Source: a phage
DNA: 44,066 bases
NCBI GenBank assembly: GCA_029093145.1
Contig: GCA_029093145.1_4347.1
Reading direction: 5' to 3' (one strand)
Shown: in pieces, positions 786-41,923 of the stretch
Layout: every line of letters starts with the position of its first letter
Position numbering within the stretch: the first letter of the stretch is position 1
Position numbers and translations under genes: made by a program
Notes under the pieces: generated by a model
Database searches by the model: none
Seen by the model: only the letters and a program-made list of their open reading frames with translations
Told to the model about the DNA's origin: nothing

Positions 786-956
786 ATGTTCAGCGACATC
801 AACGCAGCAATCGAAGAGGCAATCTGGCGCCGTTACAACGGCGAGCAACAGCGTCACTTCTGCCTGGTGCAACGCGGCAACATGGTCGCCGTAGTGCAGG
901 ACCGCGATAACAAATATCCGAATGCGATGTGGACGACGAGGAATTTCTTAGGATGA
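786..956 (+). CDS. hypothetical small protein (56 aa)
   Basis: ATG at 786; stop overlaps ATG at 953 of next gene. Confidence 0.35.
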   Translation: MFSDINAAIEEAIWRRYNGEQQRHFCLVQRGNMVAVVQDRDNKYPNAMWTTRNFLG

Positions 957-1189
957 TTACCAGCATTCCTAACCTTATTAAAGAATTTGGCACGATGGCG
1001 GAGACGTGCCGACAAACAGGCCTCAACGAAATGACGATTGCGAAGTACAGCAAAGACGTGAAATGCGAGCGCCATGTAATTTATAATAACCGCCTTATGA
1101 CGCACGTTAAGACAAGCCCGGTGTTATTCACGCGCCGCGGTATCACTAAAACAGAGCAACGAATCGCTAGAGGGGATGGCGGGGAATGA
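953..1189 (+). CDS. hypothetical protein (78 aa; track ORF 929-1189 with GTG start)
   Basis: ATG 953 overlaps stop of upstream ORF (GGATGATT); in frame with track ORF. Confidence 0.45.
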   Translation: MITSIPNLIKEFGTMAETCRQTGLNEMTIAKYSKDVKCERHVIYNNRLMTHVKTSPVLFTRRGITKTEQRIARGDGGE

Positions 1190-4909: not shown

Positions 4910-4913
4910 ATAG

Positions 4914-6778: not shown

Positions 6779-7239
6779 TGATGGGCTTTTTCAAAGTAAC
6801 TGACGTACCGTCTCGTCGCGTAGTCCAGTACGCCCGCGTGTCTGGCTCTGGCGAGAACGTGGTATTTATTGGGGACGAAAGTGTACTCGGTACACCGGTA
6901 GATGATATGCCGTTTGCATATAAAACCGGTATTGCGTTGCCCGCCGCCGGTATGCTTTATGAAATTCCGTATCTGGCGGACGCTGGCGACGTGTATTTCT
7001 CTGCGCAACCGCAGGACGCTGAACTGGCGGGCGGCAGCGCAACCATCACTGTCGAGGTTAAGGCAGGCAAAGCGCCGTATTCTCTGACCTGGTACAAAGA
7101 CGGTAAGGAAGTGGTGAATGCGCCTGAGGAGGCTCTGTCTCTGACGGTTAATGCGGTCGGCGAATACTTCGTTAAAGTTACCGATGCCGGTGGCGTAGAG
7201 GCCGTCAGTAAAGCGGCGAAGGTCGCTAAACCAGAATGA
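6778..7239 (+). CDS. Ig-like domain protein (possible capsid/virion decoration)
   Basis: Ig-like motif ATITVEVKAGKAPYSLTWYKDGKEV ... GEYFVKVTDAGG. Confidence 0.55.
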   Translation: MMGFFKVTDVPSRRVVQYARVSGSGENVVFIGDESVLGTPVDDMPFAYKTGIALPAAGMLYEIPYLADAGDVYFSAQPQDAELAGGSATITVEVKAGKAPYSLTWYKDGKEVVNAPEEALSLTVNAVGEYFVKVTDAGGVEAVSKAAKVAKPE

Positions 7240-7242
7240 TAA

Positions 7243-7270
7243 AAGGCCCCATTAAGGGGCCTTAGTTTTC
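7243..7270. terminator. terminator hairpin
   Basis: AAGGCCCC-ATTA-AGGGGCCTT then AGTTTTC. Confidence 0.6.
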
Positions 7271-7472
7271 AACGGAATCTTGTGTTTAAATCCTGCTCAT
7301 GGACAACCCTCAGAACAGTGTCATAATCCTCGTATCTTCCAGGTTCAAATATATCTAATGCCTTGTAAGCAGACATTGCGTCAGGGAAAACCTGCAGAAC
7401 CTTTTTAACCCGGCACAAGTCACCGTCGAACTCTTCATCGAACTCTTGAACTACTTCGCAAATTGCATACAT
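7269..7472 (-). CDS. small acidic hypothetical protein (67 aa), antisense moron
   Basis: Own promoter (7500-7528) and SD AGGAGGTGA; D/E-rich. Confidence 0.5.
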   Translation of the reverse strand: MYAICEVVQEFDEEFDGDLCRVKKVLQVFPDAMSAYKALDIFEPGRYEDYDTVLRVVHEQDLNTRFR

Positions 7473-7499
7473 TTTTCACCTCCTGTTTAAGTTAACTGA

Positions 7500-7528
7500 A
7501 TAGTACCCTATTATATTGGGGTGTGCAA
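7500..7528 (-). promoter_or_regulatory. class B promoter TTGCAC-N17-TACTAT with embedded AATAG-N4-CTATT dyad
   Basis: On minus strand TTGCACACCCCAATATAATAGGGTACTATTCA; near-identical copies at 16744-16772, 40040-40068, 41236-41264. Confidence 0.5.
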
Positions 7529-7580
7529 ACTATTTATTTACGTATTCCAGTTATTCCACCGAATTGTAAATGTTGGAATA

Positions 7581-7596
7581 AACTATTCGAATAGTT
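7581..7596. promoter_or_regulatory. perfect 16-bp palindrome AACTATTCGAATAGTT
   Basis: Self-complementary; half-site ACTATTC matches the promoter-associated motif. Confidence 0.4.
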
Positions 7597-7800
7597 GACT
7601 TTTCACTAAAAATATGATAAGCTCCACCTGAGCTTGTGAAGTATGAACAAGCGACCGCGGCGCGGGCAGGTAACGGAGCGGGACGTAAGTCCTGAGTGTA
7701 GTTACGCTGACGCGTTCGGAAGGGCCATACTCTATTGCTTGTGTAAAAAGTAACTGGTTTACTGAGATTACGCCGTTTCTATGTTTAAATGATAAGGACT

Positions 7801-7830
7801 AGCGCCCCGCTTTATGGCGGGGCTTTACTT
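7801..7830 (+). terminator. terminator-like hairpin upstream of spanin genes
   Basis: AGCGCCCCGC-TTTATG-GCGGGGCT followed by TTACTT. Confidence 0.4.
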
Positions 7831-7848
7831 ATCGAGAAAGGGGGAAAC

Positions 7849-8235
7849 ATGAATCTTAAAGCAACTGTCGTAGCAGGAGCATGTTTCATCATCCTGGCTT
7901 ACGCACACGGCATCTACCAGTACCGCAGCGGCTGGAGCGAAGGCCGGGCGAATCTCGTTTCGCAGCAACAGCAGAAAGCGCAGGCTGAGTTAGCGAAGAA
8001 AACACAACGGCAGCAGCAGGACGAATCAAAGGCCGCAGCCGCTGGCAACGAAGGCAAGACGAAATCAGAGGTGATTACCCGTGAAGTCGTTAAGTACATT
8101 AAAACACCTGGCCGTAGCGTGTGCACTTTTGACCCTGAGCGCGTGCAGCTCAAGTCCCGCGCCGTCGCCAACGCCAATTCCATCCCCGGATACGACGATG
8201 ATGCAGCCGCCGTGCAAACTGGCGCAGCCAAGTAG
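7849..8235 (+). CDS. i-spanin (Rz-like)
   Basis: N-terminal TM segment VVAGACFIILAYAHGI then Q/A/K-rich coiled-coil-like region; SD GGGGGAA; an overlapping lipoprotein gene in +1 frame. Confidence 0.55.
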   Translation: MNLKATVVAGACFIILAYAHGIYQYRSGWSEGRANLVSQQQQKAQAELAKKTQRQQQDESKAAAAGNEGKTKSEVITREVVKYIKTPGRSVCTFDPERVQLKSRAVANANSIPGYDDDAAAVQTGAAK

Positions 8236-8344
8236 CGACGCTGACGAAGATTTGGCTATCGACGTTCAGAATGCCGAATGTGTACGGCAACTGAGACTGA
8301 AAGTGTTCATGTTGCAGGATTACGTGAGGAATATTCTGGAATAG
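8081..8344 (+). CDS. o-spanin (Rz1-like lipoprotein), overlapping the Rz-like gene
   Basis: Signal peptide with lipobox LTLSAC followed by proline-rich segment PAPSPTPIPSP; embedded/overlapping in alternate frame of Rz-like ORF. Confidence 0.55.
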   Translation: MKSLSTLKHLAVACALLTLSACSSSPAPSPTPIPSPDTTMMQPPCKLAQPSSDADEDLAIDVQNAECVRQLRLKVFMLQDYVRNILE

Positions 8345-8426
8345 TTGCCTTGCATGTTGGGATAATTTATTCTTGACATGTAAATCCGGGTGGCCCGGAT
8401 TCCAACGTCCAGGGGACATACTGACT

Positions 8427-10195: not shown

Positions 10196-10224
10196 GAGAG
10201 GGACTTCGGTCCCTCTTTTCATTT
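10196..10224 (+). terminator. rho-independent terminator after capsid gene
   Basis: GAGAGGGAC-TTCG-GTCCCTCT followed by TTTCATTT. Confidence 0.7.
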
Positions 10225-13098: not shown

Positions 13099-14265
13099 AT
13101 GGCTACAACTCCTTTTAAGGGCGCGAATACCGCGCAATTCTATGTGGCGGAAGTGACCCCGGGCGTAACACCGACTAACCCGGTATGGTCGCCACTGCGT
13201 AACACAGGCGGCGTTCCTGCCATTACCCGTGACACGCTGACCTCCAACGAACTTGACGGCAGCCGAGAAACCACATCCATCCGCACCGGTAACAAGCAGG
13301 TTAGCGGAGAATACGCTATTGAGCTTAGCTCTAAAAGTCAGGACGACTGGTTAGCCGGGGCTTTAGGCTCTACGTGGCAATCCGGCGTTTCCCTGTCAGG
13401 ACTATCGATTACCGTCGCACCCGCGGGCAAGACGTTCACACGCGCTACCGGCAGTTTTATCACTGACGGAGTTGGGGTAGGCGACCTGATTGCGTTTACC
13501 GATTTAACAGGCGATAACGTAAAACCATTTATTGTTACTGCAGTAACGGCTACGGTTGTTACTGGTGCGGGCATCCAACACACCCTGACCACCGAGACAA
13601 AAACTAGTAAGGCTAAAACTGGCGACACGTTGGAAACCGGTAACACGTGTAAGACGTTCTCTATCCTTACCTGGTACAAAGGCCAGTGCGGCGGTACTGA
13701 CGCGTACACGTTAACCAAAGGCGTGGAAGTTTCTGGTTTTACCATCGAACAGGCTGTTAACGCGATGGTAACTGGCAGCTTCCCATTCATCGGTCGCAGT
13801 CAGGAGATTCTCACTACGCCGCCGACCGGTTCCAACTTCTCATCTGTTACTTTTGGTGATGAGCCGTTCTCTTCGGTTGACGTTTCCGTGTTCGACGGCT
13901 CTACGCCGTTGCGTTGCGACAGCCTGACTATCACCAACGATAACAGCGCGTCCGCGCAGTTCGAACTTGGTAACACTAACGTAGCGTTTGTGGAGCGTAG
14001 CCGTGCAGCTAACACATTCTCTATCTCTGGCAAGCTGTACGACATGGCGATGATTCAGAAGTTTATCAACGAGCAGCAGGTAGAGATTAACTCTATTCTG
14101 GCAGGGGTAAACGGGGCTATGTCTTTCAGTTTGAAACGTGCAGAGCTTACGGCGGTTACACCTGAGATTGGTGGGCCTGAGTCAATCACTCAGTCCATTG
14201 AAGGCCAGGCTACCGGCAATCAGTACCAGTCGTCTATCGTAATTCAACGTATCACCTACGCATAA
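13099..14265 (+). CDS. major tail protein (putative)
   Basis: ~388 aa ORF upstream of chaperone/tape-measure region; SD AAGAGG before ATG 13099. Confidence 0.6.
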   Translation: MATTPFKGANTAQFYVAEVTPGVTPTNPVWSPLRNTGGVPAITRDTLTSNELDGSRETTSIRTGNKQVSGEYAIELSSKSQDDWLAGALGSTWQSGVSLSGLSITVAPAGKTFTRATGSFITDGVGVGDLIAFTDLTGDNVKPFIVTAVTATVVTGAGIQHTLTTETKTSKAKTGDTLETGNTCKTFSILTWYKGQCGGTDAYTLTKGVEVSGFTIEQAVNAMVTGSFPFIGRSQEILTTPPTGSNFSSVTFGDEPFSSVDVSVFDGSTPLRCDSLTITNDNSASAQFELGNTNVAFVERSRAANTFSISGKLYDMAMIQKFINEQQVEINSILAGVNGAMSFSLKRAELTAVTPEIGGPESITQSIEGQATGNQYQSSIVIQRITYA

Positions 14266-14296
14266 AACTAAGGCCCCTTTCGGGGCCTTTTTCTTA
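14265..14296. terminator. bidirectional terminator
   Basis: AAAACTAAGGCCCC-TTTC-GGGGCCTTTTTCTT; A-run and T-run on both sides of the hairpin. Confidence 0.65.
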
Positions 14297-16692: not shown

Positions 16693-16743
16693 AACATAAC
16701 TCCTGATTTGAGATAACATCGTTGGTGTAAGTGAATAGTACGC

Positions 16744-16772
16744 TATTATATTGGGGAGTGCAAGTAGTGTGC
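16744..16772 (-). promoter_or_regulatory. class B promoter TTGCAC-N17-TACTAT driving the accessory operon
   Basis: Minus strand TTGCACTCCCCAATATAATAGCGTACTATTCAC; dyad AATAG-N4-CTATT at 16743-16756. Confidence 0.5.
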
Positions 16773-16870
16773 TAGAATAATTTTGCGCCTAGTGTCGCAC
16801 ACGAAAAGCGGGTGGTTCCCGTCTGGCGCATTTCCTTTAACCAGTAACCTCTTAACCAAAGGATTAAAGA

Positions 16871-17287
16871 TTGAAACTTTCTGATTTTTATTACGAAGCG
16901 GAAGCCGAAAAGGGCGCACGTATGCCGATACCGCTAAAAGACGGTACTGATTCCGGGGAATGGCTTAATGTTGTTTCTCCTGAGGCGGACGTTGCCGTTA
17001 AGGCTATGCGCGCGTTCACCCTTGCATACCGGGCAGTATTAGGGAAATTAAAACCGCTTCGTGATAAGTGCGAAGAGATGAAAGATTTCTCTGAATACAA
17101 CCTGAAGATGGAAGACGCGGCGACGGACCTTAACCGTCAGTTAGCGATTGAATTGGTTAACGGGTGGAGCCTTGACGACGAATTCAATAAAGAGAATCTG
17201 AACACACTCCTGACGCAATATAAACGACTCGCGGAACTTGTTGTTGTGTTTCATAACGAACAACTGCACCAGCTACAGGAAAAGTAG
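16871..17287 (+). CDS. tail assembly chaperone (gpG-like)
   Basis: Position immediately upstream of tape measure; TTG start with SD AAGGA. Confidence 0.55.
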   Translation: MKLSDFYYEAEAEKGARMPIPLKDGTDSGEWLNVVSPEADVAVKAMRAFTLAYRAVLGKLKPLRDKCEEMKDFSEYNLKMEDAATDLNRQLAIELVNGWSLDDEFNKENLNTLLTQYKRLAELVVVFHNEQLHQLQEK

Positions 17288-36643: not shown

Positions 36644-36859
36644 ATGCAACCATCTGAACTAGGCACCCGTGTAGAACAACGCCGTAAAGAACTCGGCATC
36701 TCCCAGCGCCGTTTGGCGGCCCTGACCGGCGTTTCCCAGGGCGCGATTAACCAACTGGCACTTGGAGTAACTCAGGACGTCCGCCCGGCAACGCTGTTCA
36801 AACTGGCGGAAGTTCTGGAAGTAGACGCCAAGTGGCTGGCGTTAGGTGAAGGGGCTTAA
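36644..36859 (+). CDS. Cro/CI-type HTH (XRE family) transcriptional regulator
   Basis: ISQRRLAALTGVSQGAINQLALG helix-turn-helix; SD AAGGAG; divergent from replication operon. Confidence 0.85.
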   Translation: MQPSELGTRVEQRRKELGISQRRLAALTGVSQGAINQLALGVTQDVRPATLFKLAEVLEVDAKWLALGEGA

Positions 36860-36876: not shown

Positions 36877-39144
36877 CTATTCCAAATCCTCCTCTGTCAC
36901 TGTCAACATTTCATTCGGTTCGTATATTGTCTTTGGAATCTTGTTATCAGTTATTCTGGTGTTCAGCCTGTAACGACCTGGGATTATCTGATTGTTTTCG
37001 TCAGTACCCGGAACAAGATACCCGGCCTCAACCATTTTCTTAATCTTCCCGCGTTCTATGGCTTCTTTGGAGTTAAACGCCTTTGCGTTTGGGTCTGACT
37101 GTGCGAGCTTATTCGCCGCGGCGACTGTGATGCCTTCGTTGCCGTTGTAGGTTCCTTCCGCCAGTTCAAACGCCGCGAGTATCGTGGCCTCCGAACTGTT
37201 GACGGCGTTCTCTACGGTTTTACGTACATTTTCTTTACCTTCTTTCGTCAACCCTTCTTCCCGCTCTTTCTCCTCGTCAGTTTTGAACGGCTCGAAACCC
37301 CACGGCATCAACACAAGCGCCTTGTGTGGTTCAGGCAGGTCCAGGTTTACGATTGTGCCGTATTCCTCTGTGCTACCCAGGAACTCAACCGCTCGGTATT
37401 CTTTAGGTGGCGGCGCTTCACGGAACTGTACCGACTCCAGCACCATGCCAACCGTCTTCTGCTGAGGCCCGTGCTTGAATTTCGAGTGATATACGTTTAT
37501 CTGACGGTCGGTTGCACGTTCGATTGTCAGTTCCACATCAACACCCGCATACAGCGCCCCACTGCCGCGTGCTTTCTTTCCACCCTTCGGCGTATGGTGG
37601 ACAACGCCTACTGCGGCTTTAGTTGCATCGCGTACTTCTTTCAGAATGGCGATAACTTTACCCATGCCGATTGCTGTTGATGAACTGTTCTCGTCGAACT
37701 TATCAATCGTCAGTGCCAGGGTCTGGTTAAGGGTGTCGAACGCAACCATGCCAATTGGCTCGTCGCCAGCAGTTTCGCGCATTAACTTAATCAGGCTTTT
37801 AAGTTTGCCGACTTCGCCCATATCGATGACATGTACATAATCTTTACCTTCCTCGCCGTATTTAGCCGCGAGCGCATCAATACGTGTACGTGTGGCTGCC
37901 CCACCCTCGCCGTCGATATAGAAATGGTGACAACGCTGGGTGTCAGCCCCTGCAAACCGGTATCCGGCGGCGCTCAGGTACATCATCCCCAGCGTATAGA
38001 ATGATTTGTACGTGCCCGATCCTCCGACGATACCCCAGATACAATCCGACGGCATGTACCCCTCAACGACGAAATCAGCCTTTACCGGCTCCGGTAACTC
38101 GTCCTCCTCTGAGTCCTCGTCGTCTTCCAGGTCGTCGAGGCTGCATGAGACAGATTCACGCGCCCCCCAACCGATGGCCTCTGCGACTTCACTGAACGGC
38201 AGCCCGGTCGCATCGCACGCGTACTTCCACACCTCTTTCGGTGACAGGCCTTCTGTCGCCGTAATGTCTGTGTCGTGAATCATGGTTACGTTTGGCGCTT
38301 CATACCCCTCGCGCGGGAAGCACAGCAGGAAGTCGTCCGGGCGCGGTGTCGGGTCGCTGTAGTTTTCGGCATGTTCCGGTGTGGCTGGCATCTTAAGGCC
38401 GCGCGGCGTCATGACGCCGCCGTACTCAAACGCCAGTGCTTCAAACGCGTCTGTAAACGCGGTGCGCAGTTCTTCCGGTATCTGGTAATCCGATGCGCTG
38501 CTAACGTCAACGGCTGGGATGCCTTCCAGTAACTCGTTCGGGTCGATCAGGTCGTTGCGGCGCGACCAGATAACGGTAGCGCCGACCGGCGGCAGGTACA
38601 TCGGCTGCGACAGAGTGAACCCGCTGCGGTCCGCACCCATGCCTTTGAAGAAGTGCTCCAGCAACCCATGACGAACACGGATGATATCACCACCCTCAAC
38701 TGGGCGGGCCAGCGGCATGACGACGCGAAAGCGAGGCGACTCATCGGTATGTGATGCCGTGGTGTAGAGACACATCGCCCGGCAGCTGCGATTAACCAGG
38801 CGCACCGCTTCCTGGTACTCTTCCGGTGTTGCACTGTCGAAGTCCAGATACGCCAGCGACGATTTGCTCACAGACGCGTCACAGCGATAGAAGAAGCCTT
38901 TACGCGCTTGTTTAAAGCCACCGGTTTCCGGGTCTTTTACGGTGCTGTGTGTAGAATCGCACGCGGCCGTGATATAACCGGGCGCAGTCTTGGGGTTAAT
39001 CCCGTCACGAACGGCATCGAGCGGCTGGATTAACTCTTTCAGGTCGTCCAGTGTTGCCGTGTGTGCGGTTCTGACATTTATATCCTTTTTCCCCGCCCGC
39101 GCGTTGCGGCGTGACCACGAGTAGGATAAAATTACATCGGACAT
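36877..39144 (-). CDS. primase-helicase (AEP-type primase-polymerase domain fused to RecA-like ATPase)
   Basis: N-terminal YLDFD and TTASHTD motifs (AEP-like); central Walker A GGSGTYKS and Walker B GMVAFDTL. Confidence 0.6.
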   Translation of the reverse strand: MSDVILSYSWSRRNARAGKKDINVRTAHTATLDDLKELIQPLDAVRDGINPKTAPGYITAACDSTHSTVKDPETGGFKQARKGFFYRCDASVSKSSLAYLDFDSATPEEYQEAVRLVNRSCRAMCLYTTASHTDESPRFRVVMPLARPVEGGDIIRVRHGLLEHFFKGMGADRSGFTLSQPMYLPPVGATVIWSRRNDLIDPNELLEGIPAVDVSSASDYQIPEELRTAFTDAFEALAFEYGGVMTPRGLKMPATPEHAENYSDPTPRPDDFLLCFPREGYEAPNVTMIHDTDITATEGLSPKEVWKYACDATGLPFSEVAEAIGWGARESVSCSLDDLEDDEDSEEDELPEPVKADFVVEGYMPSDCIWGIVGGSGTYKSFYTLGMMYLSAAGYRFAGADTQRCHHFYIDGEGGAATRTRIDALAAKYGEEGKDYVHVIDMGEVGKLKSLIKLMRETAGDEPIGMVAFDTLNQTLALTIDKFDENSSSTAIGMGKVIAILKEVRDATKAAVGVVHHTPKGGKKARGSGALYAGVDVELTIERATDRQINVYHSKFKHGPQQKTVGMVLESVQFREAPPPKEYRAVEFLGSTEEYGTIVNLDLPEPHKALVLMPWGFEPFKTDEEKEREEGLTKEGKENVRKTVENAVNSSEATILAAFELAEGTYNGNEGITVAAANKLAQSDPNAKAFNSKEAIERGKIKKMVEAGYLVPGTDENNQIIPGRYRLNTRITDNKIPKTIYEPNEMLTVTEEDLE

Positions 39145-39202: not shown

Positions 39203-39436
39203 TTATTCCAGGTCTTCTAAAGTAGCGGTCATTCCGCGAACTTCAGCAAAGGCACTATATTTCCCGCCAACATTTTTCACGACGCCAGATTTAACCAGCA
39301 CTTTTAACGACCCTTCAATAATGACGGAACTATAGTACTTAAAATAACTGCGGCGCAAGTCGATAACGCTGCACGACCCTTTTTTACGTGTTAATGAAAC
39401 GACTGCCGTAAATACGCGTGACTGGAACTCGGTCAT
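39203..39436 (-). CDS. hypothetical protein (77 aa)
   Basis: Overlaps HTH gene start by 4 nt; shares C-terminal LEDLE tail with two replication proteins. Confidence 0.45.
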   Translation of the reverse strand: MTEFQSRVFTAVVSLTRKKGSCSVIDLRRSYFKYYSSVIIEGSLKVLVKSGVVKNVGGKYSAFAEVRGMTATLEDLE

Positions 39437-39630
39437 TTTACATTCTCCTTAATCCACGCTTCCACTTTCTCCCGGTCAAACGTACCTGGCTGACGGCGGC
39501 CCATAATGCGGACACAACAATCCGGGAACTTCCCACTCTTTAACCAGTTATTCAGCGTGCGACGGGTAACCCCGATACGCTCAGCTACCTCATTCTGTGT
39601 CATCCTCAAGCCCCCATTATCAGTTAACAA
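39433..39630 (-). CDS. AlpA/excisionase-like HTH DNA-binding protein
   Basis: MTQNEVAERIGVTRRTLNNWLKSGKFP helix-turn-helix. Confidence 0.6.
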   Translation of the reverse strand: MLTDNGGLRMTQNEVAERIGVTRRTLNNWLKSGKFPDCCVRIMGRRQPGTFDREKVEAWIKENVK

Positions 39631-40039: not shown

Positions 40040-40068
40040 TTGCACACCCCAACATAATAGGTTACTAT
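40040..40068 (+). promoter_or_regulatory. class B promoter TTGCAC-N17-TACTAT
   Basis: TTGCACACCCCAACATAATAGGTTACTATTCA; dyad 40056-40069. Confidence 0.5.
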
Positions 40069-40102
40069 TCACTTATCGAAACGAGACATAAGGAATTTAG
40101 AA

Positions 40103-40321
40103 ATGAACAAAGCGACCGCAAGCGTAGTTTCCGCAATCAAACAAGTTTACGGCATCGATATTTCAGAGCGCGTAATTATCGGGAACAAACGCAACTTCTT
40201 TACGTTCGGCACCGACGGTATGGATGAAAATGATTTTGTTAACGTACAACGTTTCGCTAACGGTAAAGGACTTCGTAACGAGCCAGCGGGTTACAAGAAA
40301 TTTGCTATCTACTTTAAATAA
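40103..40321 (+). CDS. hypothetical protein (72 aa)
   Basis: SD AAGGAA; downstream of class B promoter. Confidence 0.5.
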   Translation: MNKATASVVSAIKQVYGIDISERVIIGNKRNFFTFGTDGMDENDFVNVQRFANGKGLRNEPAGYKKFAIYFK

Positions 40322-41295: not shown

Positions 41296-41421
41296 ATGAA
41301 AGATTATAGTGAAGTAACTTTAGGCGAGTTGCAGGACGAGTACGAAGATATGCTCTACCCGTTCATCTGCGACGGAGATTACAACGGCGTCTATAACGGA
41401 GTGAGCGAAGAATATGAATAG
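41296..41421 (+). CDS. hypothetical small acidic protein (41 aa)
   Basis: SD GAGAGGAGAG; hand-translated. Confidence 0.35.
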   Translation: MKDYSEVTLGELQDEYEDMLYPFICDGDYNGVYNGVSEEYE

Positions 41422-41923
41422 CAAAAACGAAGTATTTGAGTACCTGATTAACCAACTACGGCAGCAGGTGAGTAACAACCCATATAAGCAACAGTGCGAA
41501 GACTTGGCGCATGAGGTGCAGTCACTCAAGAATCAGTTACGTGATGCGTCAGCACTGGTGGCGGAGTTACATGAAACAATAAAACTAATGAACGAGGACT
41601 TTAACCGTGCAACCGGGCGAGGTGGCTCACTGCCGAAAGGGGAGAGCTACGTAGTAGGTGAACATGGGCCCGAGCAATCCGGTTGCCGTAAGGAAGATAC
41701 TCAGGAATGCGAGCACTCTTGGATTATTATGCCTGGGTTGTTTCTCAGCGAAGGCAATACGAACAACGTTCCTGGTAGTGAGCTTTGCTCTAAATGTGGT
41801 AAACGTGAGTGGGACGACAAGGAATATAAACCGAAAAACGATACACAGGAGTGCGAGCATGAATGGGAATATTATTACCCCGACGGTAGGCGTTGTACCA
41901 AATGCGGGGTGATAAACTTATGA
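41414..41923 (+). CDS. hypothetical protein with repeated Cys/His motifs
   Basis: Repeats DTQECEH(S/E)W and C(S/T)KCG; N-terminal coiled-coil-like region. Confidence 0.5.
   Translation: MNSKNEVFEYLINQLRQQVSNNPYKQQCEDLAHEVQSLKNQLRDASALVAELHETIKLMNEDFNRATGRGGSLPKGESYVVGEHGPEQSGCRKEDTQECEHSWIIMPGLFLSEGNTNNVPGSELCSKCGKREWDDKEYKPKNDTQECEHEWEYYYPDGRRCTKCGVINL

Follow-up and report, generated by a model that had tools for sequence, protein, structure and literature searches.

A structured RNA occupies most of an intergenic gap in front of the i-spanin and o-spanin genes of a Kagunavirus (Guernseyvirinae), at positions 7473-7848 of a 44,066-nt stretch of phage DNA (contig GCA_029093145.1_4347.1, about 99% identical to Escherichia phages Bas70 and KMB35) that was analysed as a whole and is referred to here as the window. 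We consider it probable that this gap holds a regulated promoter followed by a cis-acting 5' leader that tunes the stability, processing or translation of the spanin mRNA. Comparison with related phages shows the putative leader to be a plus-strand, RNA-level element that is non-coding, occurs throughout the subfamily and invariably accompanies the spanin genes. The combination of a regulated promoter and a structured leader is familiar; this RNA belongs to no described family. An initial annotation had marked 7531-7848 as a non-coding stretch, and no protein gene does lie within it, but the true intergenic gap is wider, beginning at 7473 and spanning 376 bp.

A conserved, probable leader RNA in front of the spanin genes

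The leader and its parts, as they are used throughout this text, are the following.

7630..7848, plus strand: structured untranslated leader RNA of the i-spanin and o-spanin genes, about 220 nt, identified by pairing and conservation
7632..7652, plus strand: hairpin P1 (GCUUGU/ACAAGC), adjoining the 5' end
7655..7719, plus strand: P2-P3-P4, a GC-rich, irregular long hairpin with the tip GGGAC-GUAA-GUCCU at 7680-7693
7710..7740, plus strand: conserved core ACGCGUUCGGAAGGGCCAUACUCUAUUGCUU
7741..7773, plus strand: nested hairpin P5/P6 (GUGUAA..[AGUAA-CUGGU-UUACU]..UUACGC), specific to leader type A
7775..7848, plus strand: composite 3' hairpin, ending at the start codon and enclosing the ribosome-binding site
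7643..7753, plus strand: 36-aa open reading frame (ORF), annotated as a hypothetical protein in some relatives and not a gene

All branches of the Guernseyvirinae carry a leader of 150-300 nt before the spanin genes, in at least four sequence types and about 490 phages. The gap with the type found in the window, type A, occurs in some 180 phage records at 94-100% identity, Salmonella Jerseyviruses included. Type B takes the same place in most other Jerseyviruses (273 records), with an overall identity to type A of about 52%, and types C and D stand before the spanin genes of Cornellvirus, Pantoea phage AH01 and Enterobacter and Hafnia phages (37 records). When the window was compared in 50-nt bins with three Salmonella phages that share its leader, identity within 7643-7792 was 92-100% per bin and 100% in most of them, so that E. 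coli and Salmonella phages carry an identical leader over most of this segment; the spanin, scaffold and capsid genes downstream were mostly 60-90% identical in the same comparison. Among 31 distinct type A sequences, the common polymorphic sites fall in the promoter spacer and in a hairpin loop, and the core is near-invariant (3 of 40 columns variable), a pattern which argues for purifying selection on the RNA and not for recent exchange alone. Exchange also happens, because the leader types are spread mosaically across genera. A minus-strand gene comes after the leader and spanin genes of Pantoea phage AH01 and of Salmonella phage Shemara, and in AH01 a terminator is present there as well; the leader therefore belongs to the spanin unit rather than to a long late operon. 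The conservation check among relatives, which the initial annotation had named as a way to examine this stretch, came out in favour of a functional element: the leader is kept across the subfamily and its helices covary.

Pairing was computed from 29 distinct, aligned sequences belonging to types A and B. Within the proposed helices, 91.5% of the cells were paired, versus 32-40% when the partners were slid along each other, and 52 cells were changed on both sides of a pair, versus 15.6 in shuffles. As MAFFT misregisters P4 and the lower stem of the 3' hairpin between the two types, for those helices we relied on trimmed alignments and on inspection. Several pairs of the leader are invariant G-U pairs on the plus strand, which on the opposite strand would be A-C mismatches, and the structure therefore belongs to the plus-strand RNA. 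The folding of the type C leader stands well apart from its shuffles (z = -3.6).

These results bear directly on the earlier suggestion of a packaging or replication element in cis, and on the related idea of a conserved recombination linker. The region does adjoin a slot with differing leftward genes and its types are mosaic across genera, as a linker might be. However, the compensatory changes and the G-U pairs point to single-stranded plus-strand RNA, the region travels with the spanin genes, and it lies 5 kb away from the terminase genes, with the replication genes also far off. Recombination would moreover be a consequence of the conservation, and leaves the polymorphism pattern unexplained. 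A DNA-level element of either kind is thus highly improbable in our estimation, and the packaging and replication roles find no support.

The 36-aa ORF calls for a similar comparison. The initial annotation saw no convincing ORF here, which holds in the sense that the ORF at 7643..7753 is no gene, but the frame does exist: it is open in the window, is annotated in Bas70, Sciku and others, and across the core it is open in type B as well. Against a coding role, it is disrupted in 5 of the 31 type A variants, being truncated to 9 aa (L015, L025) or 17 aa (L018) or frameshifted (L021 included), and these same variants keep the RNA pairing. Type B has no ATG, and the natural deletion variants carry a changed frame. 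The codon positions do not differ in their invariance, a convincing ribosome-binding site is lacking, and the ORF has no match among the PHROG families. That a small protein is what has been conserved here is therefore hardly credible.

Architecture of the leader

The GC-rich segment noted earlier at 7640-7720 is real: its GC content is 60.5%, compared to 31% for 7531-7639 and 50.7% for the whole window. At the 5' end, P1 is 100% paired in type A, and other hairpins take its position in type B (ACGCU/AGCGU) and type D (CGUUC/GAACG); that of type B would be partly lost if its transcript started 7 nt after its -10. A long-range pairing of 7640-7645 with 7726-7731, considered in place of P1, was dropped, being broken in one relative (L006) and absent in type B. 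P2 and the outer part of P3, which close the GC-rich domain, reach 99.4% pairing and show exchanges both from C-G to U-A and from A-U to C-G. P4 at the tip occurs among phages as GGGAC/GUCCU, GGUGC/GCACU, CGGAC/GUCCG and GGGCG/CGCCC. P5 is 100% and P6 86% paired, with changes to wobble pairs only, and both are absent in type B. A separate observation concerns ATGAACAAGCGACCGC (7643-7658) within the leader, which closely resembles the start of a 72-aa gene at 40103 (ATGAACAAAGCGACCGC, 40103-40119), downstream of a copy of an early promoter described below; this likeness may go back to an old duplication or be due to chance.

No stretch shared by types A and B is longer than the core, and it recurs in type D, where 12 nt are inserted into it. 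The 3' strand of P2 is made up of the first 10 nt of the core, the other 21 nt being mostly unpaired in our models. Within the window, no sites complementary to the core rose above chance level. E. coli genomes gave no homologue and no long complementary site, in a search that is blind to short seeds, and a scan of bacterial genomes returned three chance matches in coding DNA and one phage-contaminated contig. A 738-bp scaffold of the Taishania pollutisoli assembly (NZ_JACVEL010000048.1; L052) carries a type B Jerseyvirus leader, and is most likely phage contamination.

As for known RNA families, the covariance-model check proposed in the initial annotation yielded nothing for the spanin leader: with Rfam 15 at gathering thresholds, the sole match in the whole window was int-alpA at 16782-16846, and a permissive scan of 7230-7900 (to an E-value of 10) reached no more than 18.9 bits, the threshold being 55, at E-values of at least 0.84. 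ARAGORN found no tRNA or tmRNA genes in the window. ARAGORN and one GenBank record do place a minus-strand 'tRNA-Ser' over the end of the Hoc-like gene and the terminator upstream of the gap in relatives (L009 2280-2358; celemicas MT074484.1 12662-12739). It is absent in close relatives, lies outside the leader and is probably a false call.

The 3' hairpin, and whether it is a terminator

The ribosome-binding site of the i-spanin gene, GAAAGGGGG at 7836-7844, with the ATG at 7849, lies directly 3' of a hairpin that the initial annotation described as terminator-like. Such a structure is indeed present at 7804-7823 (GCCCCGCT-TTAT-GGCGGGGC, followed by TTTACTTATC), and our scan likewise called it terminator-like, but a more apt description is that of the tip of a longer, conserved hairpin, one extending as far as the ribosome-binding site. 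This composite hairpin consists of the upper stem at 7804-7823, a lower stem GAUAAG/CUUAUC (7791-7796 with 7828-7833), and outer pairs UUU/GAA (7784-7786 with 7836-7838) and GUUUCU/GGAAAC (7775-7780 with 7843-7848). Pairing across types is complete (100%) in both the upper and the lower stem. One pair of the hairpin occurs as CG, GC, AU and UA, and the lower stem shows a G-C to U-A exchange as well as, in type C, a change from A-U to U-A; in the ACGGCAAC/GUUGCCGU hairpin the outermost pair changes from A..U to G..C. The outermost helix, over the ribosome-binding site, was obtained by folding and inspection only, in types A and B. In types C and D, too, an extended hairpin of equivalent form precedes the ribosome-binding site, and a hairpin of this kind, ending a few bases 5' of that site, is a conserved feature of all types. 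For the spanin start region, accessibility is predicted at 0.17, the third lowest value among 22 genes, which lends slight support to a start region that would be hidden in the folded RNA.

With 8 bp, seven of them G-C, and a 4-nt loop, the upper stem has the form of an intrinsic-terminator stem-loop, and the type A hairpin with its U tract UUUACUUAUC reaches a terminator score of +17.3, on par with the +16.0 of the operon-end terminator at 14270. In type B the corresponding score is -3.2 (UUAGCGUAU) and in type C it ranges from -33 to -41 (UGUUACGAG giving -41); the scan made no terminator-like call for the hairpins of these two types. The conserved U tract of an intrinsic terminator is therefore lacking, and the tract of the window also pairs with 7791-7796.

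This matters for the possibility of a free-standing small RNA gene, whose product of about 200 nt would end at the hairpin (7823-7833) and use the core at 7720-7740 as a seed for host or phage messages. Apart from the terminator score of type A, such a gene would be in keeping with the most conserved part being unpaired and flanked by hairpins, as in many base-pairing small RNAs, and with the identity of the leader in E. coli and Salmonella phages. On the other hand, the terminator character is not conserved, the spanin genes would be left without any other visible promoter, and the complementarity searches gave chance-level sites in the phage and none in E. coli, short seeds being beyond the reach of the latter search. 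We hold a separate small RNA gene to be unlikely, while a small-RNA role could coexist with that of a leader if the RNA is released by termination or processing. Of the small RNA suggested in the initial annotation, the structured and non-coding nature is retained, given the compensatory changes, the near-invariant core and the lack of a conserved frame, but we favour the 5' leader of the spanin mRNA as its identity.

Probable promoters and repeat array in the gap

Upstream of the leader, the gap carries the following elements.

7595..7623, plus strand: probable rightward promoter, with -35 TTGACT at 7595-7600, a 17-bp spacer, TGn at 7615-7617 and -10 TAAGCT at 7618-7623
7543..7596, plus strand: TATTC(C) array, with units at 7543-7548, 7552-7557, 7575-7580 (inverted), 7584-7588 and 7589-7593 (inverted), and TGTAAAT at 7566-7572
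7493..7528, minus strand: predicted early-type sigma-70 promoter and operator, driving the leftward 67-aa gene (7472..7269)

The extended -10 of the rightward promoter reads TGATAAGCT, and its -35 matches the sigma-70 consensus TTGACA at five of six positions; we infer a transcript start near 7630. Between types, the -35 reads TTGACT (A), TAGACT (B) and TGGACT (D), and the -10 with its preceding TGn reads TAAGCT (A), TGT TACGCT (B) and TGA TAACCT (D), all of the form TA..CT. Types A, B and D thus have hexamers, TG and 17-bp spacing in common and differ in the spacer sequence, which is the pattern to be expected of a working promoter. No other copy of this promoter exists within the window, and the DNA that separates the upstream terminator from the spanin gene showed no other promoter.

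A bidirectional terminator at 7243-7263 ends the upstream terminase-portal-head operon, and because it closes that operon, a promoter is needed inside the gap. Near-identical bidirectional terminator hairpins (AAAGGCCCC...GGGGCCTT) lie at 4910, 7239, 14265, 27961 and 32970, where they mark operon boundaries.

The left-facing promoter reads TTGCAC-N17-TACTAT on the minus strand and contains the operator AATAG-N4-CTATT at 7499-7512. The whole 36-nt element recurs in near-identical copies at 16728-16763 and, inverted, at 40040-40075; at 7493-7528 it falls outside the coordinates of the initial annotation, and within the same intergenic gap. The operator motif, which overlaps the spacer and -10 of the sigma-70-type early promoters in the window, has 11 sites there versus 1.0 expected (at 7499, 16734, 30301, 33715, 36556, 36600, 40056 and 41252, and with one mismatch at 5, 7590 and 21002). 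Two of the copies flank a gene for a 71-aa helix-turn-helix protein of Cro/CI type (36644..36859). According to Pfam, the window encodes two small helix-turn-helix proteins; its HTH_17 protein is 65 aa long. Genes for small DNA-binding proteins lie at 36644..36859, 39433..39630 and 929..1189.

The perfect palindrome AACTATTCGAATAGTT reported earlier is exact at 7581-7596. With three perfect 16-nt palindromes in the window versus 0.8 expected, and at least one in 56% of resampled sequences, such a palindrome is not unusual by itself; its content is the non-random part. It is made up of the last two TATTC units of the array, head to head, and its half-site ACTATTC, which occurs 13 times in the window versus 4.5 expected, is the half-site of the early operator. 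The TATTC units and TGTAAAT are invariant between types A and B despite differing surroundings, and recur in type D. The array is therefore a probable candidate for the binding site of a phage DNA-binding regulator, and the centre of the palindrome, 41.5 bp upstream of the inferred start site, would fit an activator or repressor touching the -35 region. The third perfect 16-nt palindrome, CGGCGTCATGACGCCG, lies at 38404-38419 inside the helicase-primase gene.

The gap as a whole is best read as a divergent control region with two opposite, predicted promoters. The idea of a regulatory hub, one of several offered in the initial annotation, has accordingly proven apt: the two divergent promoters are combined with a repeat array of operator half-sites, the palindrome included.

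Genomic surroundings

The genes that border the gap are listed below.

7472..7269, minus strand: leftward 67-aa gene, the left border of the gap
ATG at 7849, plus strand: i-spanin gene, the right border, followed by the embedded o-spanin, scaffold and major capsid genes

The slot of the leftward gene, between a Hoc-like head gene and the leader, varies by phage. It holds the 67-aa protein here, a sliding-clamp-like protein, RusA, a methyltransferase or a metallophosphatase elsewhere, and nothing in some phages; the slot at 7269-7472 (minus strand) and its counterparts in relatives behave as a cargo slot.

A second conserved control region lies at 8338-8426, between the o-spanin and the scaffold gene, and draws on the same set of motifs as the spanin gap, with GGAATAGTTG, TTATTC, TTGACA and TGTAAAT. 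It also holds a CCGGG-TGG-CCCGG hairpin, and the region as such is retained in Pantoea phage AH01, directly before the scaffold gene (L053 13395-13465). Further downstream, a terminator-like hairpin with a 9-bp stem, a UUCG loop and a U-rich tail is found directly 3' of the major capsid gene (10196-10217, plus strand), and no promoter-like site was seen between it and the operon end at 14265.

Comparison with known leaders

An arrangement similar in layout is that of lambda PR', 6S RNA and tR', where a promoter, an untranslated leader of about 200 nt and a terminator-scoring hairpin are likewise followed by lysis genes (here the Rz/Rz1-type spanins) and head genes. The differences are that Pfam found no Q-like protein here, that the present leader is highly structured and conserved in sequence, that its terminator character is lost in other leader types, and that in some relatives it serves the spanins alone.

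The lambda PL leader of gene N contains nutL and a large RNase III-sensitive hairpin beside the N ribosome-binding site; this hairpin limits translation and is removed by processing. Like it, the spanin leader is about 220 nt long, has a conserved RNA signal on its 5' side, and has a long irregular hairpin that abuts the ribosome-binding site of the first gene. Unlike it, boxA and boxB were not recognised here, and the downstream gene encodes a spanin, not a regulator.

Stabilising 5' leaders of the E. coli ompA type need structure, not sequence. The spanin leader resembles these in having a hairpin a few nucleotides from the 5' end, a single-stranded middle and a second hairpin beside the ribosome-binding site, but differs in its near-invariant 31-nt core. 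Since stabilisers of this type need only structure, the near-invariance of the core suggests a specific partner.

The put RNA of HK022, about 70 nt with two stems, binds the zinc-binding domain of the polymerase beta' subunit, acts over 10 kb and suppresses distant terminators (PMC9378689). As a cis-acting structured RNA just 3' of a promoter, in an E. coli phage that uses the host polymerase (PMC9378689), it shares its position with the spanin leader, and its position only. The latter is about 220 nt long, has a dispensable domain and precedes a 600-nt unit in relatives, and it was on the description of put that we set the two apart.

Within the same genome, the int-alpA RNA (Rfam RF02996, 36.6 bits) at 16782-16846 on the plus strand lies between the early promoter-operator copy at 16728-16763 and the tail chaperone gene at 16871. 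The stretch is present in some 485 phage records, those of Pantoea, Enterobacter and Hafnia phages among them, with roughly 75-80% identity in Salmonella phages; our search of the literature on int-alpA brought up nothing useful. Its position is equivalent to that of the spanin leader, after a divergent early promoter copy and before tail genes, and both have AGCGGG at the foot of a GC hairpin. Nevertheless, the spanin leader does not match the int-alpA model even at an E-value of 10, and the two differ in size and architecture.

From these comparisons arises the question whether the leader could serve anti-termination, with either the RNA itself (as in HK022 put) or a promoter-loaded protein (as lambda Q at PR') modifying the polymerase, which would then pass the leader hairpin as well as the terminator that follows the capsid gene. 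The parallel to the lambda PR' layout speaks for this, as do the hairpin at 10196-10217 with no promoter-like site before 14265, and the int-alpA RNA as a second structured leader before tail genes. However, the type C leader serves only a spanin unit of about 600 nt with its own terminator, and its hairpin is no terminator; the -10-like pause pattern NANNNT, which GAGCTT at 7630-7635 and a second TACGCT in type B would fit, is absent in type D and so appears not to be conserved between types; and a separate conserved control region precedes the scaffold gene. Nor is there an evident protein for this task, since Pfam scans of 30 ORFs of the window found no Q-, N- or AlpA-like protein. The Q families share no mutual sequence similarity (PMC9371919), and AlpA is a larger, eight-helix protein (PMC9371919), compared to the 65 aa of the HTH_17 protein. 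Overall, anti-termination seems very unlikely to us. A 169-aa protein (41414..41923, plus strand) was considered as a Q-like candidate and set aside, having no sequence support and no family match. This protein has an N-terminal coiled coil and two zinc-ribbon-like DTQECEH.W...C.KCG repeats, and is encoded upstream of the lysis cassette.

Weighing the proposed regulated promoter and cis-acting leader

We must take into account several observations that weigh against a regulated promoter with a cis-acting leader. The -10 of the rightward promoter, TAAGCT, matches the consensus at only three of six positions, and a consensus scan made no promoter call; the perfect palindrome is confined to a narrower set of types than the array, since neither B nor D retains its right half. 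As for the RNA, the leader of the window folds only modestly better than its shuffles (z = -2.06), with a similar value for the opposite strand (-1.89). The P2-P4 domain is deleted in two independent natural variants, the phages SLMP1 and Jersey UPWr_S1, and must for that reason be dispensable. Between types, the outer helix that covers the ribosome-binding site moves by one position and lacks column-wise covariation, and the low accessibility of the spanin start is not unique, as two other genes score lower. The contact of the invariant core is left unexplained by the leader model. Furthermore, near-identity across genera fits recent recombination too, and the leader types ignore genus boundaries. 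Lastly, we found no literature on transcription in Jerseyvirus, Guernseyvirinae or Kagunavirus.

With these points included, the regulated promoter and cis-acting leader remains the account that we favour, and it could operate as follows. A phage DNA-binding protein that recognises ACTATTC would bind the array and set the timing of the promoter, from which sigma-70-type transcription would start near 7630. The first 220 nt or so of the transcript would then form the structured untranslated leader of the i-spanin/o-spanin message, with the 5' hairpin and the composite hairpin at 7775-7848 setting its stability, processing and rate of translation in cis, and the near-invariant core at 7710-7740 serving as the contact for a modulating factor. 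In type A, the tip of the hairpin may in addition act as a leaky terminator, yielding a short RNA of about 200 nt beside the read-through message; the scaffold and capsid genes of this phage are probably also transcribed by such read-through.

A bolder version, which we rate as quite unlikely, is a new class of phage riboregulator in which the core docks a host protein, RNA polymerase or a small ligand and thereby switches the 3' hairpin between a closed and an open form, or in which the cut-off leader acts in trans on host messages. The closed form would entail termination and a hidden ribosome-binding site, and the switch between the two forms would time the expression of the spanin and late genes. 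If true, the spanin leader and the int-alpA RNA would together amount to an RNA-based control of late genes, in a subfamily without a recognisable late activator or anti-terminator.

Significance for the Guernseyvirinae

The probable promoter and its leader mark the sole recognisable control point of the spanin genes, and in this phage they probably control the head genes too. With several sequence types, natural deletions and a sharply bounded invariant core, the leader is a candidate for a new RNA family in which mutational tests would be easy to design. About 490 sequenced Guernseyvirinae carry it either unannotated or mislabelled as a hypothetical protein, and many of these phages are used or proposed for the control of Salmonella and E. 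coli. For the engineering of such phages, the adjoining cargo slot would likewise be useful to know.

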